Source: Candidatus Versatilivorator sp.
GTDB lineage: Bacteria; Acidobacteriota; Terriglobia; Versatilivoradales; Versatilivoraceae
Direction of reading: 5' to 3'
Assembly (NCBI GenBank): GCA_965207735.1
Contig: OZ242296.1
Coordinates: forward strand, 2,624,001-2,688,000
DNA: 64,000 bases
A program made the position numbers and the translations under genes. Below, in pieces: positions 23,927 through 38,921 of the stretch (position 1 is its first letter; each line of letters begins with the position of its first letter). The notes beneath the pieces were generated by a model. It had not been told where the DNA came from. It searched no databases and was given only the letters and a program-made list of their open reading frames with translations.

Positions 23927-24299
23927 GTTGGACCTCCAGGAACGCCGGGAAGAACAGGCCGAGTCAAACCGGGAACACGGATTGAAATCGGCCTCCCCAT
24001 GTAGCGCAAACGAAAGGACGATTATATTCGTTTCAGGAAGGTCATCAAGCCCGCGAATGTCAGAGAGGCTGTGCCTCAGGCCGATAGGCAGGAATAAAGA
24101 TACCAGCGAAAGGGAAGAACCCCGAATAAACGCGAACAGACTGATTGATCGATGGTTGATTGGGGGAGGCGAACATGTATTCCACGTTTCCTGCAGCTTC
24201 TCATACAGGTTCTCAAATCACTGTCCAAAGAAATCGTGGGGCGGGGGACAGAAACCAGAACCTGGTTATTCCAGTAATTCAACAACGTCCCCGAGTTTT

Positions 24300-25190
24300 C
24301 AGGTAACGAGTGCCGGGCCGGGCCGGAGCCGTCCCCCCGAACTCGGCCACCAGCTGCCCCAGGACGTTGTAGACATAGGTGGTGGTGACGCCGCTCGATC
24401 CGCCGACCTCCTTCCGGACCCTTCTCCCCTCTCCGTCATAAGCATAGGCGGTGTCGCTGTCGGTGCCGGTGGGGTGGTCGAAGGCCACCAGGCGGTTGTC
24501 CCCGTCGTATTTGAAGGCGTTGGCGGCCCAGTCGGCCTTGAGGTTGCCGGCAGCGTCGTAGGCGACGATGTTCACTCCCTTGACGCCTGCCAGCCGGTTG
24601 GTCCCAGCGGCGATGTCGGCCGTCGACTGGGGTGTCAGCGCCTGGTTCGACCCGTGGGCGGCCCCCGCCGTCACCCGCCGGTTGCCGTAGCGGTCGTAGG
24701 CATAGGTCTGCGACCAAGCCGTGCCGCTGCCGCTTTCGGCGGCCGAGCTCAATCGGTTCAGCGCGTCGTAGGTGTAGGCCTGGTTTTGATTGAGCGAGGC
24801 CCCTACCCGGATCCGCTGGCTCAGGACGTTGCCGTTGTTCGAGGCTGTCCCGTAGGAGTAGTCGAGCAGCAGCAGGCCCGCCGTAGGCCTCGTCCCGGTG
24901 GCCGTCAGCCCCCCGGTGGCCATGGCCGTCCCGAGGCCGATCTGGGTCGGCTGCAGGCGGACGTTATAGCGCCGCTGCTCCCACAGCCCGTTGCCCAGAA
25001 GTAGCTGCTTCACCCCTCCGTGGGGCTCATACCCGACGGCGTTATCCCCCCTCCCCCCGGCATACCAGCCGTCGATGCCCGTCTTGGCCCCCGCAATCCT
25101 CCCCGCCCCGTCGTAGACGTAGTCCACCACCCGGTCGGAGGGGTAGCGCTGCGAGGTCAGGTTCCCCGCCCGGTCGTAGGCGTAGGCCAT
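24300..25190 (-). pseudogene. Rhs/YD shell fragment 1 (no N-terminus, no core end, no toxin)
   Basis: Near-identical to about 28290-29170 of the full Rhs gene (MAYAYDRAGNL...PGTRYL), with one variant loop. Confidence 0.88.
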
Positions 25191-25467
25191 TTGGGCGTTC
25201 AATAGGGGACGTTGTTGAATCAGTGGAATTTCGCTGTCAGGCGATTCTGTCGACGCCTGGACAGGGAGGAAAAAACGGAGGGGAAATCCCGGACATAGTG
25301 GGGAACTGCTTGGTGCAACGATTCGAACGCGTATTGAGGACGAATCGTGGCGTCAGTGTCTGCGAGTTTGCCGAAGCGCTCGGGAAGCCATCTGCATCGC
25401 CGTTTTATTCAGTCGCGAACAAGAAACTGAGAAAGTTATTCCAGCAATTCAACAACGTCCCCTATTT

Positions 25468-25632
25468 CCCCCGCTGAAGTGGCCCACCTCCACCACCCGC
25501 CCCAGATTATCCAGCCTGGTCCGGGTCCATCCCGACTTGGTCCTCCCCCGGTAGGGGTTCGAGGTCCAGGTGTAGTAGCCGGGCGAGGACCCATCCGTCA
25601 GGCGCCGGTAGACTGTCTTGATCTTGATGCCC
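25468..25632 (-). pseudogene. Rhs/YD shell fragment 2
   Basis: Manual translation GIKIKTVYRRLTDGSSPGYYTWTSNPYRGRTKSGWTRTRLDNLGRVVEVGHFSG matches main-gene GIKVATHY...SNPYRGTTKSGWTRTRLDNLGRVVEVGRFSG (about 29815-29965). Absent from the ORF track. Confidence 0.85.
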
Positions 25633-26107
25633 GAAGTCGTCGGGGCGTGGGCGGTCGTTTGGGGGGGGAAGAGATCTCTCAGGCTGCCGGCCGGCCGTTC
25701 CGTCGGCAGGACAACAGATTGAAAGGGCTATTCGGTCGAAAGGGGTGAAACGGAGGGATTCACAGGTCGATGTCGGCGCCGGCGAGAGTGACCCTTCAGC
25801 TATGTGGGGCTCTAACTGGGGAAGTACACTGGGGAAGTATTCAATGGCGGTGCACTTGACTCAAGGGTGCAACCTCTGGAGACGGAAACAGGGGATGTTG
25901 TTGAATTGCCGGATTAACCTCTCTCACACCGAGTTGTTGGAAGAGCCCGGATGGTCTCGGATATAGGTTCCGCACCAGGCAAACCACTCCAACACCTTCA
26001 TCGCCAACGGATTACAGAATCGCTAGTTCAAGCTATTCCAGTAACTCAACAACGTCCCTGAATTCCCTCTTAACAAATCCACTGTTTCGCACAACCAATT
26101 GCAGACA

Positions 26108-27322
26108 TCACATCTTATCCAGAAACTTCCGGATCCGTTCCACTACCTTGTTCTCTTTAGCAAGTTCGCATTGCCAAATGACCAGCACGTCCCAACCCGC
26201 TTCAGCGAGAGCCTCTTGGTCTTGCGCGTCTCGTTGGTCGATGTCGCGTAGCCTCCGCGACCAGTAATCATAATAGTACTCATCAGCCTGGTCCTCCCTG
26301 CATTCGGGCAGGTCATGCCGATGCACACGACAAGCGTAATAGAAGATCACCTTTTGCCGGTCCGGGAAGACCAGAGCGGGACAGCCGGGAAGGTCCTTGC
26401 GGTCGAGCTGACAATGGTAGCCCATCGATTGCACGAGCTGGCACAGCTGATTCTTTTCAGGCAGCGCTTGAATCTCTAGATAGGGGGGAGTGTAGTCTCT
26501 TCGCAACGGAACAGTAACCCTATTCAGGGACGGCAACGTCTGCAAGGAAGACAGATCCTTGTCGGCCGTGACGTGTAAATCAACAATCGACACCCACTCG
26601 AGGCTTTCGCTCCCTGACAGGAATTTGAGACTCGGGAGAGGGCCACAGTTTTCGAACCGCACTTTCTTGAGACGCTTCATCGAAGCGAGGCGGGGAAACA
26701 TGCTAATTTTCTTGCAAGCATAGACTTCCAGTTCTTCAAGATTGGACAGCTCCTCAATGCCCTCGAGACTGGTCAGCTTCGTGCAGATACATAACTCGAG
26801 AGTCCGCAGCTTGGTAAGCTTCGAAATGCCCGCAAGGCTACACAACTTCCTCGAATAGATCTTCAGGTTTTCGAGCTTCCGCATGGACGCAAGCATACCC
26901 AGGTCTTCCCCAGGGTACGAATCGATGGTCAAGTACTCCAAACGATGGCATTTGTCCAGATTCCTGGTTTTTTTCGACCAACGACAGTACAAACTCCGCA
27001 ACTGCTTGAATACTCCTAGGTCAATGGGGCGCTTCAGATTGACCTCAAATGACAGGTGTTCGATCCCCTTCCGGCACATCAAGGGACTAAGATCGTTGAC
27101 GTTCCAACTGAAGACCTTAAATCCGGTCACAGAAGTCGGAACCTCCTCTAGAAAATCAAGGTGTTCGTCTGGCCAAACTGGAGAGCGCCCATCCCCATCC
27201 AGAGTTAGGGTAAGTACACCTTCGCTCTCAATCACAGAGGCAAATTCCTGCGACCAGGACTGCCGCAAAACCAAGCAGCGACCAAAACGCCCATATTCCC
27301 TGATATATACCCCCCTCCCCAT
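26108..27322 (-). CDS. Putative immunity protein: leucine-rich repeats fused to a degenerate Vsr-like domain
   Basis: LxxLxL repeats (KLENLKI, KLRTLEL, NLEELEV); C-terminal MGYHCQLDRKDLPGCPALVFPDRQKVIF...GWDVLVIWQCEL resembles Vsr; directly downstream of the toxin gene and lower in GC. Confidence 0.82.
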   Translation of the reverse strand: MGRGVYIREYGRFGRCLVLRQSWSQEFASVIESEGVLTLTLDGDGRSPVWPDEHLDFLEEVPTSVTGFKVFSWNVNDLSPLMCRKGIEHLSFEVNLKRPIDLGVFKQLRSLYCRWSKKTRNLDKCHRLEYLTIDSYPGEDLGMLASMRKLENLKIYSRKLCSLAGISKLTKLRTLELCICTKLTSLEGIEELSNLEELEVYACKKISMFPRLASMKRLKKVRFENCGPLPSLKFLSGSESLEWVSIVDLHVTADKDLSSLQTLPSLNRVTVPLRRDYTPPYLEIQALPEKNQLCQLVQSMGYHCQLDRKDLPGCPALVFPDRQKVIFYYACRVHRHDLPECREDQADEYYYDYWSRRLRDIDQRDAQDQEALAEAGWDVLVIWQCELAKENKVVERIRKFLDKM

Positions 27323-27352
27323 AAAAGAGATCCCTCCATTGCACCGAAAGTC

Positions 27353-30300
27353 CTATCGTCCTTGCTCTAGCTCCAATTGCTGCCGCCGTTGCTTGGAAAC
27401 CGGATTACGCTGGTTCGAAACCATGGGTGAATCCTTCACATTATCACCCCCGACAATCTTCTTAAGTCTATCGGATTCTGCAAGCTCTCGCTTCGTTTTC
27501 CCTCCGCGCACTTCCTTCACCGTGACTTGGGTGCCCTCGGGGAGCGTTCCTGACCTCATATGCTGCTGAAGTCGTTTCTGAGGATTGCCGGATTGGCCGA
27601 CATATTTTTTGCCAGTATCGTCAACGAATTCGTAAATTCCCTCCTTGACCGGGACGGTCATCTTGCCCTTACCGCTGGCCGCGCGAACAACGGCAGTACC
27701 TTTGTCAACCCGGTTGACCGCCCGTGCCACTCCACCCGCTGCCCGCGAGGCCCTGATGGCGGTGGCTGCCCCACCCGGCACTCCCGGTATGGCGGTAGCA
27801 GCTACATCCACAACCACCCCGGCAAGATCGACGGCGGCGGCTTTGTAATTTCCTTCTGCGATGTTGACGGCAGCGGATGCCAGTCCGATGGTGACGTTGA
27901 AAACATCCCAGGGAGATTCAAGGACGTTGCCGGTCCTGTCGACGTACTTGAGGGGGCTGTTCCGGGTGTAGGTGTAGAGATTCCAGCTCTGGGGATCGGC
28001 TGCGCCCTGATCGGCGAAGGGGGCATCGGCGGACGTAAACCGTCCTCCTGCCCCGCTAAAGTAGCGTGCCCCGAAGTAATCGAGCCCGGACTCGTTATCC
28101 CTTTCCTTGCCGGTAAACTTCTGGGCGGGTCCGTCGGCGCGGGAGGCGGTGTAGCCCGTGACCCCCGTGGCCTGGCCCCGATTCCCCAGGCCGGCGCCGA
28201 TCTCCTCCCCGAAGGGCAGGTAGTCGTGGCGGGAGAGGACCGACTGGTCCTCCCCGGTCACGACGCGGGTGCTGCCGAGATGATCGGGGGTGAGGTAGCG
28301 GGTCCCCGGCCGGTCCGGAGCCGTCCCCCCGAACTCGGCCACCAGTTGCCCCAGGACGTTATAGACGTAGGTGGTGGTGACCCCGCCTGAGCCCCCGACC
28401 ACCTTGCGGACCCTCCGGCCCTCTCCGTCATAGGCGTAGGCGGTGTCGCTGTCGGTGCCGGTGGGGTGGTCGAAGGCCACCAGGCGGTTGTCCCCGTCGT
28501 ATTTGAAGGTGTTGGCGGCCCAGTCGGCCTTGAGGTTGCCGGCAGCGTCGTAGGCGACGGTGTTGACTCCCTTGGTGCCTGCCAGCCGGTTGGTCCCAGC
28601 GGCGATGTCGGCCGTCGACTGGGGCGTCAGCGCCTGGTTCGATCCGTGGGAGGCCCCGGCCGTCACCCTCCGGTTGCCGTAGCGGTCGTAGGCGTAGGTC
28701 TGCGACCAAGCGGCGCCGCTGCCGCTTTCGGCGGCCGAGCTCAATCGATTCAGCGCGTCGTAGGTGTAGGCCTGGTTTTGATTCAGCGACGTTCCCACCC
28801 GGATCCGCTGGCTCAGGACGTTGCCGTTGTTCGAACTGGTGCCGTAGGAGTAGTCGAGCAGCAACAGGCCCGAGCCGGCCGGGGTCAGGCCGCCCGTGGC
28901 CTTGGTTGACCCCAGGCCGATTTGGGTCGGCTGCAGGCGGACGTTATAGCGCCGCTGCTCCCACAGCCCGTTGCCCAGAAGCAGCTGCTTCACCCCGCCG
29001 TGGGGCTCATAGCCGACGGCGTTATCCCCCCTCCCCCCGGCATACCAGCCGTCGGCACCCGTCTTGGCTCCCGCTATCCGCCCCGCCCCGTCGTAGACGT
29101 AGTCCACCACCCGGTCGGAGGGGTAGCGCTGCGAGGTCAGGTTCCCCGCACGGTCGTAGGCGTAGGCCATGGTGTAGGGAGGGTTCCCCCCGGTCCTCTG
29201 GGTGCTCTCCAGCACCCGCCCCAGCGCGTCGTAGCGGTTGTAGGCCGTCCGGGTGACGTCTGTCGTGCCCTTCTTCGCCGTCACCGAGCACAGCCGCCCT
29301 CGGGAGTAGCTGCCGCAGCTGTCATAGGCGTAGTCGACCCGGGTGGTCCCGAGGCTTACGGCAGTGTCGCTCCCCGTGTAGCTGTAGCTGCGCCGGGTCA
29401 GACGGTCCAGGCGGTCGTAGGTGTAGGCGGTCACCACCCCGCGGGCGTCGGTCCTTTGCGTCAGGTTGCCGTTGTTGTCGTAGGTGTAGGCGACGGTCCC
29501 GCTTTCGGGATTGGCGGCCGAGGTCAGGCGCGAGAGGCTGTCGTAGGCGAAGGTCCGGGTCTGGCTGCCCTGGGTGACCCCGGTCAGGTTGTCGAGGGCG
29601 TTGTAGGTGTAGGAGGTCCCCTGGTTGGGCGAGCCGACTGTGCCCAGGGCGGGGGGTGAGCCGGTGGGCTCATCCACCCGCACCAGGCGGCCGAGCCCGT
29701 CCAGACGGCTGCGGCGCGTCTTGCCGGCCGGGTCGGTCACGGTGGTGTATTCCCCGTCGTAGGCGGTCGCGGTCTTGCCCAGGGTGGGGGCGGCGCCGGC
29801 CGAGGGCTTGGCGGCCCCGCTGAAGCGGCCTACCTCCACCACCCGACCCAGATTATCCAGCCTGGTCCGGGTCCATCCCGACTTGGTCGTCCCCCGGTAG
29901 GGGTTCGAGGTGGTGGTGGTGCTCGAGGTCCCCGACCTCAGGTAGTGGGTCGCCACCTTGATGCCGGCCGTCTCCGAGTCGTAGGACGAGCAGTGGGCGT
30001 TGCGGTCAGACCCGGCCGGAAGCGGCGGCGCGTCTCCCTCGTAGCCGCGGACCAGCCTCACCCTTCCCAGCCCGTCGTAGTCGGTCACCGTCACCAGCTT
30101 CCCGTCCCCCTTGGCTCCCAGGTCGGATCGCACGATCATCCGCCGCTTCTCGTCGCAGTGCCAGCTTTGGGTCCGCCGCTCCTCGCTCTTCCCCGAGGAC
30201 TCCTTCACCAGGATGGCCCGGCCCACGTCGTCCAGCCCGGTCAGGGTCGCCACGCCGTTGTCCACGTCGGTGGATGAGGTCACCTGACCGGTGTGGAAGT

Positions 30301-32689
30301 CGTAGCCGTAGGTCATCGTCCGCGACACCCCGGTGCCGGAGGCCTCCACCACCCGGGTCGGGTAGAGCTGCGAGATCGACGGCGAGCCGCTGCCGGCGAT
30401 GGCCCCGTAGGTCCAGCGCGTCACCGTCCCCCGCCCGTCGGTGGTCGAGGTCCGGTTGCCGTGGCTGTCGTAGGCGTGCGAGAGGGTGAAGGAGTTGGCC
30501 GAGGTCAGCGTCCCCGACACCACCCCCGAAGCATTGGACTTGCCGATCTTCTCCCCCGTCAGGTTCCCCCGGGTGTCGTAGCTGAACTCCCGCCGCGACC
30601 GCTTCGTTCCCCCGCCTTCCCGGACCTCGGTCGAGGCCTTCAGCGTGAGCCGGCGGGCCGAGTCGGGATCGTAGTAGGCGTCGTCGTCCGAGGTGGCGGT
30701 GTCGGTGGCTGCCGGGGTCGCCGACCGGTAGGCGTGGGCGGTGGTGCGCCGCTTGCTCCCGCGGCTCCGGGTCGGGTTGCCGCTCGCATCGTGCACGGCG
30801 GTGTAGTCGACCCAGTCGTACTCCTCCACCCGGGTCAGGTTCCCGTTCTTGTCGTAGGCGTAGTCGGTGACCGCCGTCTTGTCGGTCGTCCCCTGCTCGG
30901 TCCGGTACTCCGACTTCACGTAGGGGTTGGCCTGAAGGATCGAGGCCCGCGTGATTCCAGGCGACCCGATGGATGGGATGTTGTAGGCCCACTCCCGCTC
31001 CATCACCCTGGAGAGCTTCGAGTCCAGGCAGTTCGGCCCCCCCAAGGGAATGGTGGCCTCCTCGCAGTACTCGACCTTCGCCAGCAGGCCCCCGAAGGCG
31101 GCGTTGCGGCCGTAGGTCTCCCGCCTCTTCCCCCCTCCCGGGGTGGTGATGACGGCCTGGAGGTTGGGCGCGATCCGGTAGTCCCAGCTCTCGGTCTGCC
31201 TGGCGCTGCCGAAGCCGGTCGGGTAGCTGACGCTCTTGGCCGTGATGGCGTTTTCCGCCGCCGCCTGCGCGTTGTGCAGCGCCGAGGCCGACTCCATGTC
31301 GGCGTAGTCCTGCACATAGGTGTAGGTGGCCTTGGCTCCCCAGGGCATGGTTGCGGTGCGCAACTCCCCCAGCCCCCGCGAATGGGGCGCGTAGGGGGCG
31401 CCTGAAGGGTTGCTCTCGGCGCCGTTATAGGTGAACCGGTAGTCGAGACCCCCCACTTGGGAGGGCAGCACGATGCGGGCCACCATCCGCAGGTCGCCGG
31501 CAATGAAGCCCACCGTGTCCTCGCTGTTGGTCGTCGAGGTGGCGGTGCCCGCCTCGTTGTGCTGGATCCTCCGGATCGGGTAGGTGCGGTTGACGCTCGT
31601 TTCCCCCCACTCCACCGTCCAGGTCAGATCCTCGCCCCCGGCCCCCTTTCCGGTGATGGTCTGGCGGTTCGGATCCGGCCGCTGATTCTCCCCCGGCTCG
31701 ATCCGGATCGTCCGCCCCGCCTCGTCCCGGATCAGATCGTAGGGAGCGTCGTCGTTGTCCAGCAGCCGGCTGACGGTCACCGCGCCGGCGTCGCTGTCGT
31801 TGGGGTCCAGGAAGCGGTTGGCCATCAGCCCCACCCCCTTCACCTGACGCCCGTCGGGAAAGGTCAGCGTCCAGGGGTTGTCCTGCCACTGATAGACGTC
31901 GAGCAGGGTCGCCGAACTGCCGGTTTCGAAGTCCAGCCGCAGGTAGGTCCCGTCGGTGCTGTAGTAGCTCACCGTGCTGTTGGCCGCCGGGGCCGTCCAT
32001 CCCGTGATCCCGGCCATGCAGTGGCCACGGTCCTTCATCTTCCAGCCCGTGGGCAGGATCCGGAAGTAGCCGTCTCCGTAGCGGTCGTCCTCCCCCACCG
32101 GACGGAACACGTGCACGCTCCCGTCGGGAAACACCATCCGCACCTGGTAGCGGTACCAGTGCTTTCCGATGAAGTCGTCACCCCCGCCCGGCGTCAGCGG
32201 CAGCCCGTCGCAGTAGTTCGGATAACGCCCCCGGCGGTGCTGGTTGCGGTCCTGCACGTCCAGCCGGTAGTCGTAGTTGTAGCGCCACCCCGGACTTCCG
32301 AAGGCCTCCCCCACCCGCTGCACCTCCCGGTAATAGGGGTCTCCCGGCAGCGTCCGCTCCGAGTTCCACTCGTGCTGCACCAGGAAGTCCCGCAGGTTGC
32401 TGTTGTAGTTGAGCGTGAGCTCGAAGCCCGGATTGCCCCCGCGCCCCGGCGGCAAAGACGCCAGCGGCACCACCAGCGTCACGTTGCCGTTCTTGGCGTT
32501 GACCGTCTCGATCTCGGAAAACTGGTAGGACCCGGTCGGCACAAAGCCCCGCTCACCGGCTTCCTTGCCCGCCGTCTTGCCCTGCCCCCACAGCCCCGGG
32601 GCCAACACACACAGCCACCCCAGCCCCGCCGCCGCTGCCGCCAGCCCTCGCCTCGACCCCGTTCTCATGCCCACTGTCCTCCTCCTCAT
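27353..32689 (-). CDS. Signal-peptide Rhs/YD-repeat polymorphic toxin with C-terminal GIY-YIG nuclease
   Basis: Sec-like N-terminus; many YD repeats; core FTGKERDNESGLDYFGARY...WNLYTYTRNSPLKYVDRTG; tip EGIYEF...YVGQSGNPQKRLQQH...RELAE...SN. Confidence 0.93.
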   Translation of the reverse strand: MRRRTVGMRTGSRRGLAAAAAGLGWLCVLAPGLWGQGKTAGKEAGERGFVPTGSYQFSEIETVNAKNGNVTLVVPLASLPPGRGGNPGFELTLNYNSNLRDFLVQHEWNSERTLPGDPYYREVQRVGEAFGSPGWRYNYDYRLDVQDRNQHRRGRYPNYCDGLPLTPGGGDDFIGKHWYRYQVRMVFPDGSVHVFRPVGEDDRYGDGYFRILPTGWKMKDRGHCMAGITGWTAPAANSTVSYYSTDGTYLRLDFETGSSATLLDVYQWQDNPWTLTFPDGRQVKGVGLMANRFLDPNDSDAGAVTVSRLLDNDDAPYDLIRDEAGRTIRIEPGENQRPDPNRQTITGKGAGGEDLTWTVEWGETSVNRTYPIRRIQHNEAGTATSTTNSEDTVGFIAGDLRMVARIVLPSQVGGLDYRFTYNGAESNPSGAPYAPHSRGLGELRTATMPWGAKATYTYVQDYADMESASALHNAQAAAENAITAKSVSYPTGFGSARQTESWDYRIAPNLQAVITTPGGGKRRETYGRNAAFGGLLAKVEYCEEATIPLGGPNCLDSKLSRVMEREWAYNIPSIGSPGITRASILQANPYVKSEYRTEQGTTDKTAVTDYAYDKNGNLTRVEEYDWVDYTAVHDASGNPTRSRGSKRRTTAHAYRSATPAATDTATSDDDAYYDPDSARRLTLKASTEVREGGGTKRSRREFSYDTRGNLTGEKIGKSNASGVVSGTLTSANSFTLSHAYDSHGNRTSTTDGRGTVTRWTYGAIAGSGSPSISQLYPTRVVEASGTGVSRTMTYGYDFHTGQVTSSTDVDNGVATLTGLDDVGRAILVKESSGKSEERRTQSWHCDEKRRMIVRSDLGAKGDGKLVTVTDYDGLGRVRLVRGYEGDAPPLPAGSDRNAHCSSYDSETAGIKVATHYLRSGTSSTTTTSNPYRGTTKSGWTRTRLDNLGRVVEVGRFSGAAKPSAGAAPTLGKTATAYDGEYTTVTDPAGKTRRSRLDGLGRLVRVDEPTGSPPALGTVGSPNQGTSYTYNALDNLTGVTQGSQTRTFAYDSLSRLTSAANPESGTVAYTYDNNGNLTQRTDARGVVTAYTYDRLDRLTRRSYSYTGSDTAVSLGTTRVDYAYDSCGSYSRGRLCSVTAKKGTTDVTRTAYNRYDALGRVLESTQRTGGNPPYTMAYAYDRAGNLTSQRYPSDRVVDYVYDGAGRIAGAKTGADGWYAGGRGDNAVGYEPHGGVKQLLLGNGLWEQRRYNVRLQPTQIGLGSTKATGGLTPAGSGLLLLDYSYGTSSNNGNVLSQRIRVGTSLNQNQAYTYDALNRLSSAAESGSGAAWSQTYAYDRYGNRRVTAGASHGSNQALTPQSTADIAAGTNRLAGTKGVNTVAYDAAGNLKADWAANTFKYDGDNRLVAFDHPTGTDSDTAYAYDGEGRRVRKVVGGSGGVTTTYVYNVLGQLVAEFGGTAPDRPGTRYLTPDHLGSTRVVTGEDQSVLSRHDYLPFGEEIGAGLGNRGQATGVTGYTASRADGPAQKFTGKERDNESGLDYFGARYFSGAGGRFTSADAPFADQGAADPQSWNLYTYTRNSPLKYVDRTGNVLESPWDVFNVTIGLASAAVNIAEGNYKAAAVDLAGVVVDVAATAIPGVPGGAATAIRASRAAGGVARAVNRVDKGTAVVRAASGKGKMTVPVKEGIYEFVDDTGKKYVGQSGNPQKRLQQHMRSGTLPEGTQVTVKEVRGGKTKRELAESDRLKKIVGGDNVKDSPMVSNQRNPVSKQRRQQLELEQGR

Positions 32690-32691
32690 GG

Positions 32692-33483
32692 CTATGGCAG
32701 GCTGAACTTGCCGTCCTCGGCCGCCGCCGCTATCCCCGCCTCCCGGATCTCGAGCTTCACCACCTCGACACCGTTCTCAAAGCGCACCATCTTCCCCGGG
32801 ATCAGCTGCCCGTAGACCTCTCCCCAGTCGCTGATTTCCACCGACACCTTCACCTCGCCCCGAACCCGCTCCGGACTCAGCCGGTAGCGCACCCGCTCCA
32901 GCAGCGCCGTGTCCGAGTTGAAGTAATAGAGCTTCCGCTGCCGCAGGGGACGCCCCACCACCCGCACCTCGTTGATCACCTCGTAGAGGTCGTAGTCCGG
33001 ACCCACCCGGTTGCCCGAATCGTCCACCCGGTGGTAGCGGCTCCCCAGAAGCCGCGTCGCAAACCCTTCGAGCTGACCGATGAAGAACCCCTCCACCGAG
33101 TCGTAGACCAGCATCTCGATCAGGTCCTCATCGGCCAGAACCGCCGTCCCCCGCTTCTTCCTCAGGTTCCCCGCCCCGTCGTAGACCAGCAGCTCGTCCT
33201 TGTTCGGGTCCGGCTCCTCCCCCAGCCGCTTCTCCAGGCGCACCTTCCCCGGAAACTCCCACAGGATCCGCACCCCCACCGGGCTCTGACCCGCCCGCGT
33301 CAGCACCCCCAACAGGTCCAGCCGCTCCTTGCCTTCGACCTGCAGCCGGTCCCCCATGATCTCGAGCACCCTGCCGGCCCCGTAGGGCACATCCTGCGGC
33401 CCCACGTATCCCTGCCCCGCTCCCGGCCAGGGCAGACCCAGCAGGCCCCAGACAACCGCCATCCCAACCGCTATCCTCTTCAT
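32692..33483 (-). CDS. Secreted beta-rich protein, possibly LolA-like; co-transcribed with rhs
   Basis: GGAGG RBS then MKRIAVGMAVVWGLLGLPWPGAG signal; PGKVRLE, KLYYFNSDTALL and DWGEVYGQLIP recall LolA-like/DUF620-type proteins; stop 2 nt from the rhs ATG. Confidence 0.6.
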   Translation of the reverse strand: MKRIAVGMAVVWGLLGLPWPGAGQGYVGPQDVPYGAGRVLEIMGDRLQVEGKERLDLLGVLTRAGQSPVGVRILWEFPGKVRLEKRLGEEPDPNKDELLVYDGAGNLRKKRGTAVLADEDLIEMLVYDSVEGFFIGQLEGFATRLLGSRYHRVDDSGNRVGPDYDLYEVINEVRVVGRPLRQRKLYYFNSDTALLERVRYRLSPERVRGEVKVSVEISDWGEVYGQLIPGKMVRFENGVEVVKLEIREAGIAAAAEDGKFSLP

Positions 33484-33506
33484 CCCTTTCCTCCCTTCCG
33501 CTCTCC

Positions 33507-36500
33507 CTACGGGTCCGGCGTCGACTCCTCTTCCTCTTCGTCTTCCTCCGGACAGTCCTTCGGGTCCTCGCACTCCTCCTCCGGGTCCCGCCGCACCGGG
33601 TCCCCCGTCACCGTGAAGTCCACCCCCGTGCTGGTCAGACCGTTGGCCGTCACCGTCACCGATACCGTCCCCCGGCCCAGGTGCCTCGGCACCAGTGCGT
33701 CGATCGAGGTGTTGCTCCAGCTTTCGATCTCCGCCGAGCTCCCCCCGAAGCTCACCGTATCCTCGGTCGTCCCGAAGTTCGACCCCGAGATCGTTACCTG
33801 AGAGTCCGGGACCCCCTGACTCGGCAGGATGCCGCTGATCGACGGCGCCGGTGGCGCCGGCTGGCCGGTGACCGTCACCGAGTCCAGCCGGGCTCCCAGG
33901 ATGCGGTTCTCGTAGTCGTAGAGATAGAAGACGTAGCTGTGGGCCGGCGACTGCTGGATCCAGGAGGGCGAGGAGCTGCCCGTCCGCCCGCTGCTGGCAT
34001 GAACCCGCTCTGCCTGCCCATTGTGGGAAGTTCGGACAAGCAGTCCCGTGGTGCCGGTGGCGCTCCAGCGGACGGTGGTCGTGCAGGTGGTCGCCGACGC
34101 TGCAATGGTGCAGGGGTTGGGCGAGGCGCTGATGGTGCCGGGCGGCCTGGCGTCGACCGTCACCGTCTCGCTGTCGCCGGCGTCGCTCCAGGCCGGGTTG
34201 GAGGCCGTGATCGTATAGTCATGGCTGCCCTGAACGGGCGTCAGGTCGCGGCTCCCGCTGGAATTGCCCGATACGGTGCCGATGCCGCTGATACCGGTGA
34301 TGACCGTGGTCTCGGCATTGGTGCTCGACCAGGTCACCGTCACCGGCTGACCCTGGTTGATGCTGGTCCGGTTGGCGCTGATCGCGGCCGTCGGCTCGTC
34401 CCAGGCCGTCACAGTGACGGTGCAGCTCGCGGCATAATTTCCGGTCCAGGCCGGATTGCTGGCAGTCAGCGTAAAGGTGTGGGCGCCTTTCGTGCTCAGC
34501 CTCACTGTATGGGGACTGGTGACGGATCCCGAGGTGCCGGTCACGATCACCGTTTGAGCGTTGGTCGCCGTCCAGGTCAACCTAGAAGTGCCGCCGGTCC
34601 TGACGTCGGTGGGATTGGCCGAGCAGGAGCTAATGGTCGGCCGCGCCCAGACCGTCACCGTGACGGTTTTTGTGACTTTCTTGTTGCCGGTGTCGGTGCT
34701 GCAATTGCTCGCGCAGGCCATCAGCGTGTAGGTATGGGAGCCTGTCGTGCTCGGCCGCACATCCTGGGCGCCATCCACGGGCACCGAGGAACCGTTGATC
34801 GTCACCTGTTCGGCGTTACTCGTCTGCCACGCCAGCGTAGAGTGGCTGTTGGTCGCAATGTGCTCCGGATCGGACGTGAAGGAATCGATCCTCGGCAGGG
34901 CCATCGTCGTCACCGTGAAGGTGCCGATGGTTCTCGCCTCCCGGGCGACGGTGACCACCACGCTCTTGTTACCGGTCGTGGCGTTCTGCGGCACCGTGAA
35001 CACGATCCGGGTGTCGCTCCAGCTGGTCGGCGTCACCGCCGCTCCCCCGAAGGTCAGCGTCGAAATTCCCTGCCTCGCCCCGAAGCGCGACCCCATGACC
35101 GTCACCGAGGTCCCCACCTGTCCCGAGGCGGGACTTAGCGAGAGCGCCCGGTCGCCGGTGACTAAGACCGAGCACAGTTGACTGCCCCGCCTTCCGCCGG
35201 AGTGGTCATGGACGGCGAACTCGTGGCGAAAGCGCGGCGCCGGCTCGATGGTGGCGTTCTGGTTGCCCGAGGTGGAATCGGTGGTCGTGAAGGCCGTCAG
35301 CGTCCCGCCGAGGTATCCGAAGGGGGTCCGCTCCTGCCGCTTGGTCCAGACCCGAACGGCGGTCGTGTTCATCGATGTCCAGGTGAGGGTGGACGTGCAG
35401 GTGCTCCGGCCCTTGGCAATGATGCAGGGGTTCGGAGCGGCAGTGATGGTGCATCGTACCGTCCCCACCGGGGGAACCGTCCCCACCGTGAAGGTGCCTA
35501 TGGTCCTGGCCGTCCCGCCGACGGTGACCACCACCTCTCCGGTGGTCGCCTCTGCCGGCACCTCGACCACGATCCGGGTGTCGCTCCAGCTGGTGTAGGT
35601 CGTGACCGGGGTCCCGTTGAAGGTCACCGTGGACGCGTTCGGGCCCGTCCCGCGGGAGTCCCCGAAGGCCGACCCCATGATGGTCACCACCGTCCCCACC
35701 GGTCCCGAGTCGGGACTCAGCGAGAGCGCCTTGACGCCCTTGACCGTGACGGTGGCCAGTTGGCGGCCCCTCCTGCGGGTGGAGGTAATATACTCATACA
35801 GATAGAAGGGGGAATCGGTCAGATCGATCCCGGTGAAGACGCGGTTGCCGTCGGGGCTGCCGCTTCGGACCACGATCTCGTTGATCGAGGACGTCGAGCC
35901 CTCCTGCGGCCTGATGCGCCGCACCTGAACGGCCGTGGTGTCGGTCGAGGTCCAACTCAGGGTGGTCGAGCAGGTGGTCTGCCCCGCCGCGATGGTGCAG
36001 GGATTGGGGCTGGCCGTCAGGGTGCCCTTGGGCATGCGGGTCGGGTTGCGGTCACGGATCACCACCGAGACGTCCGGGATCTCGATCCCCTGGTAGCGGC
36101 TGTCGGTGCTGGTGGCCGCATGGGTGATGACCTCGGTCTCTCCCACCGTGTCGTCGTCCCGACCGACCGAGACGGTGATCCATTGGGGAGAGTCCCAGTT
36201 CGAGGCAGTGAAGGTCACCCGGGCGGGGTTGACCGTCACGTCGGCCGTATTGTCCGAGCCCCGGCTGACCGAAAGCGCGATCGCCACGTTGGCCGTCGGC
36301 GCCGCGCCCAGCTCCAGCGTATAGGCCCCTGTGTGCCCCTCGGTGAGCCGCAAGCTGTTGGTCAAGGCCGGCACCCCCGGCGTGTCGGGGTCGTCGTCGT
36401 CGTCGATGGTCACCACCACGCTGACCTCTCCCACGGCTCCGCCCTGGCTGATCGCCGCCAGCCGGCCGCCCAGGTAGACGTACTCCCGGGTGGGGGCCGG

Positions 36501-37589
36501 TGAGCCCATCGCCGTGGCCAAGTACCCATCCCGCAACAGGCCTCCCCGAAGCGACGAGCTCGAGCCGGTGGTGGCCCGCGTGAGGGTGTGGGTGATGCTT
36601 TCCACTTCATCCACCAGGTCGGTGTCCTGCACCGCCTCCTCCCGGTCCTCGTCCTCCCCCGCCGTCACCGTCACCGTCTGCGGCTCGTCCCAGTTCGAGG
36701 CCGTAAAGACCGGCAGGATGTCCACCGACAGGTCCGTCCCCTCGGAAGCGAACATCGATACCGTCACCGCCGAGGCCGGACTCGAGTCCAGCACCACCGT
36801 ATAGGTCCCCGTCCCTCCCTCCTCGACGGTCAGCTCCGTCGGATCGACCGTCACCCCCGTCACCGTGAAGGGAACCCCGTTGCTGGCCCTACCCCCCACC
36901 GTCACCACCACGTTGCCCGTCCTCGCTCCTGCCGGCACCGTCGCCGCGATCGAGGTCGCACTCCAGGCGGTCGTGACGGCTTCCGCCCCGTTGAAGGTCA
37001 CCGTCGAGAACCGCTTCGCCGCCCCGAAGTTCGAACCCGTGATCACGACCGATGTCCCCGGCTCCCCCGAGGTCGGATCGATCCCGCCGATCACAGGCGT
37101 CGGCGACACCGCGAACACCAACCCGTTGCTCGCCTGCCCTCCCACCGTCACCAGCACCCGGCCCGTCGCCGCCCCCACCGGCACCGCAGCCGTGATCGAA
37201 GTCGCGCTCCAACTCGTCGTGGCCGCCCCGGTCCCGTTGAAGGAGACCGTCGAAGTCCCCTTCGCCGCCCCGAAGTTCGAACCCGTGATCGTGACACTCA
37301 CCCCCACCCCTCCCGAGATCGGGGTCAGCCGGCCGATCGACGGCGCCGGCGTCCCGTCGGGGTCGTCGTCACCCAGCGTCACCTGGCAGGTGTCCCCAAT
37401 GTGTCCCTCTGCGTTCACCCTGTAGAGGATCCGCTCGTTGCCCTCCCTGCCGGAATCGTCGACCACCGTCAGCGTCCCGGTCGCGCTGCTCTCTCCCGCC
37501 GCTATCGTCAGCGTCGCCGGCGTCGTATATTCCGCCCCATGGGTCGCCGTCCCCCCGAAGGTCACCGCCCCTTGCACTATCGCACACAA
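33507..37589 (-). CDS. Large Ig-like surface protein (partial Calx-beta, IPT/TIG repeats, ASPNPC modules); probably 5'-truncated
   Basis: Five units like P.SG..G..VTI.GSNFG...SWS.T.I...VP; three [AS]PNPC.I...C...W modules; begins mid Calx-beta with no signal peptide. Confidence 0.8.
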   Translation of the reverse strand: MCAIVQGAVTFGGTATHGAEYTTPATLTIAAGESSATGTLTVVDDSGREGNERILYRVNAEGHIGDTCQVTLGDDDPDGTPAPSIGRLTPISGGVGVSVTITGSNFGAAKGTSTVSFNGTGAATTSWSATSITAAVPVGAATGRVLVTVGGQASNGLVFAVSPTPVIGGIDPTSGEPGTSVVITGSNFGAAKRFSTVTFNGAEAVTTAWSATSIAATVPAGARTGNVVVTVGGRASNGVPFTVTGVTVDPTELTVEEGGTGTYTVVLDSSPASAVTVSMFASEGTDLSVDILPVFTASNWDEPQTVTVTAGEDEDREEAVQDTDLVDEVESITHTLTRATTGSSSSLRGGLLRDGYLATAMGSPAPTREYVYLGGRLAAISQGGAVGEVSVVVTIDDDDDPDTPGVPALTNSLRLTEGHTGAYTLELGAAPTANVAIALSVSRGSDNTADVTVNPARVTFTASNWDSPQWITVSVGRDDDTVGETEVITHAATSTDSRYQGIEIPDVSVVIRDRNPTRMPKGTLTASPNPCTIAAGQTTCSTTLSWTSTDTTAVQVRRIRPQEGSTSSINEIVVRSGSPDGNRVFTGIDLTDSPFYLYEYITSTRRRGRQLATVTVKGVKALSLSPDSGPVGTVVTIMGSAFGDSRGTGPNASTVTFNGTPVTTYTSWSDTRIVVEVPAEATTGEVVVTVGGTARTIGTFTVGTVPPVGTVRCTITAAPNPCIIAKGRSTCTSTLTWTSMNTTAVRVWTKRQERTPFGYLGGTLTAFTTTDSTSGNQNATIEPAPRFRHEFAVHDHSGGRRGSQLCSVLVTGDRALSLSPASGQVGTSVTVMGSRFGARQGISTLTFGGAAVTPTSWSDTRIVFTVPQNATTGNKSVVVTVAREARTIGTFTVTTMALPRIDSFTSDPEHIATNSHSTLAWQTSNAEQVTINGSSVPVDGAQDVRPSTTGSHTYTLMACASNCSTDTGNKKVTKTVTVTVWARPTISSCSANPTDVRTGGTSRLTWTATNAQTVIVTGTSGSVTSPHTVRLSTKGAHTFTLTASNPAWTGNYAASCTVTVTAWDEPTAAISANRTSINQGQPVTVTWSSTNAETTVITGISGIGTVSGNSSGSRDLTPVQGSHDYTITASNPAWSDAGDSETVTVDARPPGTISASPNPCTIAASATTCTTTVRWSATGTTGLLVRTSHNGQAERVHASSGRTGSSSPSWIQQSPAHSYVFYLYDYENRILGARLDSVTVTGQPAPPAPSISGILPSQGVPDSQVTISGSNFGTTEDTVSFGGSSAEIESWSNTSIDALVPRHLGRGTVSVTVTANGLTSTGVDFTVTGDPVRRDPEEECEDPKDCPEEDEEEEESTPDP

Positions 37590-37663
37590 AATGCATTATG
37601 ACACATGGCTTGTCAACCCAATTTTCTTGTCTTTGGTAAAAAAACTATGCAATATGGTGCATA
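37573..37663. promoter_or_regulatory. AT-rich divergent control region with candidate operators
   Basis: TGCANTAT at 37573, 37592 and 37648; palindrome TATGCA-N6-TGCATA at 37646-37663; minus-strand TTGACA at 37611-37616. Confidence 0.5.
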
Positions 37664-37690
37664 TAAGACGGCCTTATTCACAGGTGCCCC

Positions 37691-38464
37691 ATGTGCGCGG
37701 AGAAGCCTTTCGACCTGATCCGCACCGCCATCCGCGAATCCCTCATACGGTCCGGCGCCGGCGCCAGAACCCTCGAATCCAAGCTCGGCCTCAAGCCCTG
37801 GTCCCTCAGGGGCATCCTCGACCGCCGCCGCCCCCAGGTCCCCTCGGTCGACCGTGCCTTCGAGATCTGCCAGGCTCTCGGCCTCGAGTTCTACATCGGC
37901 CCTCCCCGGCGCTCTTCCTCCTCCCCGCCTCCGACCCGGACCGACCCCGCCCCCGAGTGGGTCGAGATCCTCCGCTCCGAGATCCGCCAGGCCCTCAACC
38001 CCGATAACGCCGGCCTCTCCCACGACCTTGTCCACGTCCCCCACCTCAGGACCCTCGTCGGCAGCGGCGCCGACCGTCTCGACCCCGAGGAAATCGGGCT
38101 CGTCCCCTTCCGCAAGAGCTGGCTGCTCCAAGACGGCATCGACCTTCACCGGTGCTATATGGTCCGCGTCCAGGGCCACGCCATGGCTCCCACCCTCCCC
38201 GACGGCTGCCTCGTCCTGGTCAACCCCGCATGGAAGGACCGCGAGAACGATCGCCTCTACCTGGTCCGCTCCCGCCAGGGGCTCATCGCCCGCCGCGTCC
38301 GCAAGGGACCCAGCGGCTCCCGCGGCATGGTGGCCGACAACCTCGCCTTCAACGATCGGTTCTGGCCGACCGACAAGGACGTGCTGGGGGAACTGGTCTG
38401 GATGGCTCGATGCCTGCGGAGTAAAAGCTCGGAGGCAGGAGTGTATGCGTGGGAAACGAAGTGA
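37691..38464 (+). CDS. XRE-HTH / S24-like (phage CI/LexA-type) transcriptional regulator
   Basis: N-terminal HTH (ARTLESKLGLKPWSLRGI...PSVDRAFEICQALGL); C-terminal VQGHAMAPTLPDGCLVLV...VLGELVW. Confidence 0.85.
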   Translation: MCAEKPFDLIRTAIRESLIRSGAGARTLESKLGLKPWSLRGILDRRRPQVPSVDRAFEICQALGLEFYIGPPRRSSSSPPPTRTDPAPEWVEILRSEIRQALNPDNAGLSHDLVHVPHLRTLVGSGADRLDPEEIGLVPFRKSWLLQDGIDLHRCYMVRVQGHAMAPTLPDGCLVLVNPAWKDRENDRLYLVRSRQGLIARRVRKGPSGSRGMVADNLAFNDRFWPTDKDVLGELVWMARCLRSKSSEAGVYAWETK

Positions 38465-38811
38465 CAGACCGGCCCGGACCCGCCCGGCTACCCGTACCGG
38501 TCCGGACAGGAAGAGACCGAGGACGATCCCGGCGAAAGCCAGCCCCCCCAGACACGGTTACAGTGAGGAGGTTCAAGCCCGCTCCGGGTTGGAGGGATAC
38601 CGCCGCCGGGACTGCTTGGAGTAAACGGGGCCTCGAGAAGCCCGCCGGCCCGGACACTGAATCGGCCGCAAGCTATCCCCCGCAAGCCAGCCTGTATTGG
38701 TCACGGACACCCCCGTGCCGGTTGCCCTCGTAACCGGACGGGCCTTGCGTCCAGCGATTGATCAGGCCGACCCCGTCACGGCAAAGAACCCTGGAATCTG
38801 TCAGGATGTTC

Positions 38812-38865
38812 CCAGGCAAGTCCCGCCCCTGCCCTGCCGGGCAGATCATCCGAAGGTGAAACAAC
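38812..38865 (-). repeat. Family A repeat, partial copy (right end only)
   Basis: CAGGCAAGTCCCGCCCCTGCCCTGCCGGGCAGATCATCCGAAGGTGAAACAA matches about 60188-60240. Confidence 0.8.
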
Positions 38866-38921
38866 GAATCTTCATGTCCTGCCGGGAATAGGGGCCATGC
38901 CGTGCTAAACCGGTTTTCGAC

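Follow-up and report, generated by a model that had tools for sequence, protein, structure and literature searches.

A short-form Rhs toxin of Candidatus Versatilivorator and the adhesin hairpin that may complete its shell

A stretch of 64,000 nucleotides from Candidatus Versatilivorator sp. (contig OZ242296.1, positions 2,624,001 to 2,688,000; hereafter the window) carries a gene for a Rhs protein, the toxin-bearing capsule of a polymorphic toxin. It is preceded by genes for an adhesin with Ig-like IPT/TIG repeats and for a small accessory protein, and is followed by a gene in which leucine-rich repeats (LRR) are joined to a Vsr-like domain (LRR-Vsr). The shell of this Rhs lacks one β-hairpin and, judging from the sequences, is probably completed by a donor hairpin of the upstream adhesin, which would tether or aim the capsule. 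What is new in the locus is a variant of the Rhs polymorphic toxin, not a secretion system. It addresses an open question, namely how Rhs toxins that lack the machinery of a type VI secretion system (T6SS), of Tc toxins or of contact-dependent inhibition (CDI) reach and choose their targets.

The missing hairpin and its candidate donor

The Rhs protein scores above the cut-offs of PF05593, TIGR01643 and TIGR03696 and so has both the YD repeats and the Rhs-associated core, and its fold matches the shells of Rhs, TcB-TcC and TLP structures. Aligned Rhs cores take three forms at a site just before the motif DxLG[ST]: a long form, in which the hairpin is present; an insert form, in which the hairpin is followed by 100-450 extra residues; and a short form, in which 14-18 residues are missing. 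The solved structures of RhsP, BiTLP and teneurin-3 are of the long form, with the hairpin in cis. The window Rhs is of the short form: the hairpin that precedes the core, the last one before it, is absent rather than supplied in cis. Of its 120 best homologues, 111 are also short, the other 9 being unscored, and in the alignment 7 short cores show a clean gap of 14-18 residues against 8 long ones. Modelled alone, residues 900-1592 still form a shell (pLDDT 79, pTM 0.74), although the pLDDT falls to 62-68 at the short linker and the model fails past model residue 620. The low value at the linker is compatible with a gap in the shell, but also with a shallow alignment. A recurrent insert of 110 residues, with no Pfam match, was seen behind the hairpin in the Rhs of loci L037, L105, L140 and L220-L223.

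A segment matching the one that is absent from the Rhs lies in a loop of an Ig-like repeat of the adhesin. When the adhesin is scored with a profile made solely from 40 in-cis Rhs hairpins (the cis-only profile), residues 367-380 rank first with 25.9 and the next site reaches 17.1; the best site in the window Rhs scores 17.7, below that of the adhesin. Run in the reverse test over 41 long or insert Rhs, the donor profile places its best site on the in-cis hairpin in 32, with low scores. A preliminary description of this DNA had linked the adhesin to the Rhs capsule, and at the level of sequence the link is borne out, since the split hairpin, missing in one protein and present in the other, is a concrete basis for it. 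Because the shell of the Rhs is short of two strands that the adhesin next to it carries as one piece, the adhesin likely snaps into the capsule.

Distribution of donors and Rhs forms

Donors and Rhs forms were compared at 47 Rhs loci that had not been chosen by the motif, each with at least 2.5 kb of upstream DNA. A donor is present upstream of 7 of the 10 short Rhs and of 0 of the 37 long or insert Rhs. (Automatic scoring gave a form for 76 distinct Rhs no shorter than 1200 aa; by eye, 4 others were assigned to the long or insert form, L056 and L183 were set to short by hand, and two contig-cut rows were removed.) The donor profile matched 22 of the 401 genomes of the phylum. The 32 regions it identified contain 24 donor genes recognized by a strict pattern and 1 recognized by eye, 6 in-cis hairpins, and 1 region without an open reading frame (ORF). 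In the donor-first loci, every donor with a downstream core in view (16/16, after correction of the automatic pattern, which misclassed L194 and L198) precedes a short core, and a further pair of donor and short core is found in genome G435. The split layout recurs across Acidobacteria.

A library search with the donor profile returned 362 clusters at 50% identity, and 149 of the best 150 matches are without Rhs marks. Among the donors in these 150 that have a start methionine and an early motif, 129 of 134 have a hydrophobic stretch ahead of the motif; in most donors the N-terminus, which lies 20-40 residues ahead of it, is basic and hydrophobic. Within the genus of the window the motif sits instead in internal loops, at residues 367, 1018 and about 1100. 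An Atlas search with the N-terminus of one donor gave no usable match. Behind the motif, 57 scanned donors carry Fn3, F5/8, LamG, BACON, CBM6/35, FG-GAP, TIG, SLH or DUF4214 domains, or none. In insert-form Rhs, where 7 of 13 inserts gave matches, the domains that follow the in-cis hairpin are F5/8, LamG, NPCBM and DUF4214; F5/8, LamG and DUF4214 are common to the inserts and the separate donors. A natural fusion also occurs: in P0247 (2751 aa), one chain combines the donor, at residues 33-61, with Fn3/TIG domains and a short core. The simplest history would lead from a hairpin to a hairpin with an inserted binding domain and then to a separate gene for both, an inferred order. The adhesin is likely an exchangeable aiming device of the toxin capsule. 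In a Bryobacterales genome, a protein of 1041 aa (L253, G436:C133:488-3613) carries a variant of the donor whose motif is changed in its middle part.

Several points weigh against a donor hairpin that works in this way. The cis-only profile picks out the motif in 113 of 113 donors, but these had originally been chosen by the donor profile, so that the test is partly circular. The cis-only hidden Markov model (HMM) gave no match to the window adhesin motif among 71,827 six-frame genome segments, and the donor-to-cis scores come to only a few bits. Three short Rhs (L056, L147 and L226) show no donor nearby; contig ends cut L147 and L226 upstream, and the genomes of L147 and L056 hold a donor elsewhere. 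Short orphan cores are also found in G279, which is complete, and in G319, with no donor match in either genome. In a quick tree of 68 rows (8 further rows, having no anchor, were left out), the long and insert forms of this family make up one branch of 41 rows with a support of 92, and the short forms make up 2-3 basal groups; the window Rhs groups with the Rhs of two genomes of the same genus (support 100). On such a tree the locus counts are not independent events, and the p-value of 2e-6 overstates the association; the split may go back to a single event or to a few.

The state of the adhesin in the window is a further point of this kind. By inspection it has no signal peptide and begins at the equivalent of residue 160 of the full-length relative in L142, about 160 N-terminal residues being absent; the adhesins of other full-length relatives start with a signal that ends in an Ala-rich, cleavage-like site. 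With its signal peptide lost, the copy in the window may be inactive or in decay. A search of the rest of the genome for the missing 5' end found nothing. An assembly error at this place was considered and rejected, since a contig from a run that may be the source sample matches positions 37261-38884 across the junction of adhesin and regulator with no differences. The adhesin starts of L053 and L054 are damaged as well, and in L054 a deletion fuses the adhesin to a truncated regulator. In the window, L053 and L054 the lesion at the start of the adhesin, or at its junction with the regulator, is a different one each time, which hints at repeated switching off.

The few origins on the tree, the short cores without a donor, and a Rhs that still models as a shell when alone would all fit a motif that is a relic of gene fission. 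In that case an inserted adhesin domain would have taken the hairpin with it out of the Rhs, the shell, though shorter, would close unaided, and the motif in the neighbour would no longer bind. Such a relic is unlikely, however, given that the motif has been kept across several families and classes while the other domains of the donors were exchanged, and that it is found relocated, to internal loops within this genus and to the single-chain fusion. It is also improbable, and distinctly so, that the donor serves mainly as an anchor or export aid, with an uncleaved N-terminal hydrophobic segment holding the capsule at the envelope of the producer until release. The basic, hydrophobic N-termini shortly before the motif and the SLH domains of some donors fit an anchor; the C-terminal parts of the donors, however, are varied carbohydrate- and protein-binding folds of the same kinds that other Rhs carry as inserts in cis, and the cleavage-like end of the signal in the full-length adhesins of the genus does not suit a segment that stays uncleaved.

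If the donor hairpin does complete the shell, the Rhs and donor chains would both cross the inner membrane via Sec, and in the periplasm the hairpin would be fitted into the shell's last turn; the accessory protein, which has a LolA fold, may assist. The complex would then exit through the machinery of type II secretion system (T2SS) kind encoded in the genome, and the binding domains of the adhesin would pick the surface or target cell. The core would cleave the tip, a nuclease of the GIY-YIG type, which the LRR-Vsr protein would neutralise. A wider proposal, for the whole phylum, has a little less than an even chance: in a two-part class of Rhs, the 14-residue donor hairpin would be a universal plug, any adhesin with the plug would complete the shell and become a targeting arm, tip and donor would be shuffled independently, and the LolA-fold protein would guard the open groove until assembly.

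The locus and its neighbouring genes

The host belongs to the Acidobacteriota, and its genome is a single contig of 5.26 Mb rated 100% complete; a link to sponges is possible, and no paper confirming this habitat was found. Metabolic genes surround the locus. The features are collected in Table 1.

Table 1. Features of the Rhs locus in the window (positions are those of the window)
Feature	Position	Strand	Remarks
Orphan rhs piece	24301-25190	minus	91% identity to main gene; hairpin-less; cut just before the core by an IS-like end
Small orphan rhs piece	25469-25565	minus	96% identity to main gene
Five IS/MITE-like terminal repeats bounding the orphan pieces	24277-26059 (24277, 25205, 25447, 25891, 26044)		
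LRR-Vsr gene	26108-27322	minus	ORF, 404 aa
Rhs gene	27353-32689	minus	ORF, 1778 aa
C-terminal tip	27353-27928	minus	Ntox10-like helical part and GIY-YIG/Tox-URI1-like nuclease; PF15520 E 6.6e-5, PF01541 E 7.7e-5 (weak)
Short linker	28304-28330	minus	Rhs residues 1454-1462; other Rhs have the hairpin, or hairpin and inserted domain, here
Accessory gene	32692-33483	minus	263 aa, counted from the ATG with a ribosome-binding site
IPT/TIG adhesin gene	33507-37589	minus	ORF, 1360 aa
Donor hairpin	36450-36491	minus	Adhesin residues 367-380, loop of Ig-like repeat; matches the segment absent from the Rhs
Divergent CI/LexA-type regulator	37691-38464	plus	257 aa; Peptidase_S24 PF00717 E 2.9e-10; N-terminal helix-turn-helix by inspection

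The four co-oriented genes are tightly packed, with gaps of 23, 2 and 30 nt from adhesin to accessory gene to Rhs to LRR-Vsr, and their ORFs and strands are as the preliminary description gave them. No sigma-70 promoter or terminator at the locus scored above chance. The adhesin contains 5 TIG stretches, and its end (33507-33600) has an acidic tail with two cysteines, found in all relatives of the genus, which could be a sorting or metal-binding signal. Ig-like repeats of the same kind, without the donor motif, occur in another region with a large protein (G000:C1:2767832-2777290). Between adhesin and regulator lies a candidate operator (37646-37663), a palindrome whose two 6-base arms stand 6 bases apart, and a paralogue of the S24 regulator is encoded at G000:C1:1745035-1745778, near a reverse transcriptase and a transposase. 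The system had been described as lying under this regulator, but the two are not constant neighbours: of 3 relatives with upstream DNA, only one (L054) has the regulator next to the adhesin, as a truncated homologue, and none is seen in L053 or L142.

The tip has a GC content of 0.574 against 0.686, that of the LRR-Vsr gene being 0.521, and it shows the residues Y, YxG, R, E and N of the Tox-URI1 pattern given in PMC3482391. Among 42 close relatives there are 17 tip groups, and the genes behind the tip differ in L053, L054, L139 and L141. Together with the orphan modules, the variable tip and the variable gene next to it are those of a polymorphic toxin. The repeat of insertion sequence (IS) or miniature inverted-repeat transposable element (MITE) type that bounds the orphan pieces occurs 95 times in the genome when up to 2 mismatches are allowed; it is often paired 55-240 bp apart and flanks orphan rhs pieces in L053 and L054 too.

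The LRR-Vsr protein matches both LRR and Vsr, with 62 bits to TIGR00632, below the cut-off of 97.85. Compared with the intact Vsr of the same genome it has lost the catalytic PD-Asp and the FWHxH motif (by E. coli numbering), in agreement with the earlier view of it as a catalytically degenerate Vsr fused to LRR. The fusion was seen in just 2 close homologues. From its position it is likely the immunity gene; as a component of the system it was rejected, being one of many genes found behind a variable tip. The immunity families listed for URI1 in the excerpted text of PMC3482391 are Imm14/26/44/51.

The accessory protein, whose model has a pLDDT of 89, shows the open β half-barrel and helical lid of the LolA superfamily. 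In Foldseek, the model matches LolA3 and NE2245 (E 1e-8 to 1e-7, TM 0.42-0.51, 11-16% identity), and in the Atlas the protein is placed at 0.96 to a lipoprotein-sorting cluster; it has no Pfam match. There are 107 homologues, of which the named ones are acidobacterial and one is annotated DUF4292; matches in non-acidobacterial metagenome-assembled genomes (L031, L057) were not trusted because they lie on short contigs. Of 111 loci examined, 89 were counted, after 5 duplicates and 17 with less than 300 bp downstream had been set aside. A Rhs starts at most 1.5 kb downstream of the accessory gene in 79 of the 89 and is absent in 10. Full-length matches occur in only 5 of the 401 phylum genomes, and neither the 32 donor-first regions nor the 40 Rhs-first ones yielded an accessory gene. 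The link between accessory protein and Rhs is therefore one that runs one way. The coupling of the two genes that had been expected from neighbourhood conservation is thus found, but co-occurrence with IPT/TIG genes does not extend beyond this genus, and IPT/TIG was rejected as the defining adhesin. Other proteins upstream of accessory genes were seen as well: tail-fibre-like secreted proteins with 'GNVGIGT' repeats and no donor motif precede the accessory gene and Rhs in L037, L091, L100, L105, L129, L136 and L140, and PA14-like repeat proteins are found in L062, L070-L074 and L081 (both names by inspection). A paralogue in the genome of the window lies, with no rhs, between two large LRR surface proteins (G000:C1:4333314-4343093). 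These have a C-terminal domain without a name in common, and a domain of this type is also found behind a broken Rhs in L143.

The Rhs and the accessory protein both begin, by inspection, with basic residues followed by a hydrophobic stretch, so that the Sec-like signals reported earlier were seen again; no lipobox is evident in the Rhs by the same means. Searches of the complete genome gave no match to PAAR, VgrG (Phage_GPD), Hcp, VipB or SpvB, and the positive controls were detected. The absence of PAAR, VgrG and Tc genes, first noted in the window, thereby extends to the whole genome (with SpvB standing for Tc), in keeping with a T6SS-independent Rhs with a Sec-like signal in a diderm. Searches for TpsB and for PorP (type IX secretion system) also gave no match, the positive controls being silent too. 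There are three secretins in the genome, one with a GspK match and pseudopilin-like genes nearby (2.25-2.26 Mb), forming a T2SS-type cluster. In the excerpted text of PMC3482391 a signal peptide is the default export mark of RHS toxins of the Sec/T2SS class. With such a cluster present and Sec/T2SS as the default for such toxins, the new export route proposed earlier is not needed.

It is very unlikely that the four genes form a dedicated delivery system with the accessory protein as an essential export or chaperone component, as the preliminary description had it: the frequent position of the accessory gene before Rhs, the suitability of a LolA fold for a periplasmic carrier, and the lack of a T6SS match speak for it, but no accessory gene was seen in donor-first and Rhs-first loci, a paralogue stands between LRR surface proteins with no rhs, and the genome has its T2SS-type cluster. 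A fixed set of four was rejected: the LRR-Vsr gene is one of many in its place, the regulator is inconstant, and no locus outside this genus combines the IPT/TIG adhesin with the accessory gene and Rhs.

Significance and relation to known systems

A hairpin supplied in trans would be a short, defined and mutable handle that makes the choice of target testable. The split would explain hundreds of acidobacterial proteins that are unannotated, 'hypothetical' or labelled FG-GAP/Fn3 (the 362 clusters), would show a route by which an inserted domain becomes a separate subunit in the Rhs/teneurin fold, and marks a new LolA-fold family as a Rhs partner at a subset of loci. Literature searches for Rhs with strand complementation or donor strands found nothing, although subscription papers were outside their scope and a prior mention is possible; those for Rhs with LolA found nothing relevant.

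The shell fold and core are like those of the PAAR- or VgrG-linked Rhs of the T6SS (RhsA, Tse5, RhsP), but here the genome has no match to PAAR, VgrG, Hcp or sheath, and the accessory protein is signal-bearing and LolA-like. The EagR chaperones of T6SS Rhs are likewise encoded by a small accessory gene directly upstream. In the donor-strand complementation of chaperone-usher pili, a missing β element also comes from a neighbouring subunit, although there the fold is Ig and a single strand is donated. WapA of Bacillus is a Sec-exported YD toxin with binding repeats, but consists of one chain and belongs to a monoderm.

The accessory fold resembles that of LolA-superfamily and DUF4292-like proteins (PDB 9TP6, 3BUU, 3BK5), from which it differs in its low identity and in its place outside any lol operon. 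With the Sec/T2SS-class RHS toxins that bear Tox-URI1 tips (PMC3482391), the locus shares a signal-like N-terminus, RHS repeats, a variable tip, a downstream gene placed as for immunity and orphan cassettes; the excerpts of that source list no signature neighbour gene, LolA-fold partner or split shell for the class, and their immunity proteins are not LRR-Vsr. The bacterial teneurin-like proteins (TLPs), BiTLP among them (PDB 9IFO), are YD-shell toxins with a signal peptide and variable adhesion domains, according to excerpts of PMC13018210, and occur in Acidobacteriota too. The TLPs, however, are single chains with an FN-plug, NHL and N-terminal adhesion modules, and BiTLP keeps its hairpin in cis; the window Rhs has no NHL or teneurin N-terminal Pfam match, its fold model covering only residues 900-1592. 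The TcB-TcC component of Tc/ABC toxins likewise forms one YD shell from two polypeptides, as far as the excerpted text of PMC6425310 goes. There, however, the shell is divided into two large halves that follow one another, accompanied by SpvB and a TcA injector, whereas here, where SpvB was not found, a single internal hairpin appears to have been outsourced.

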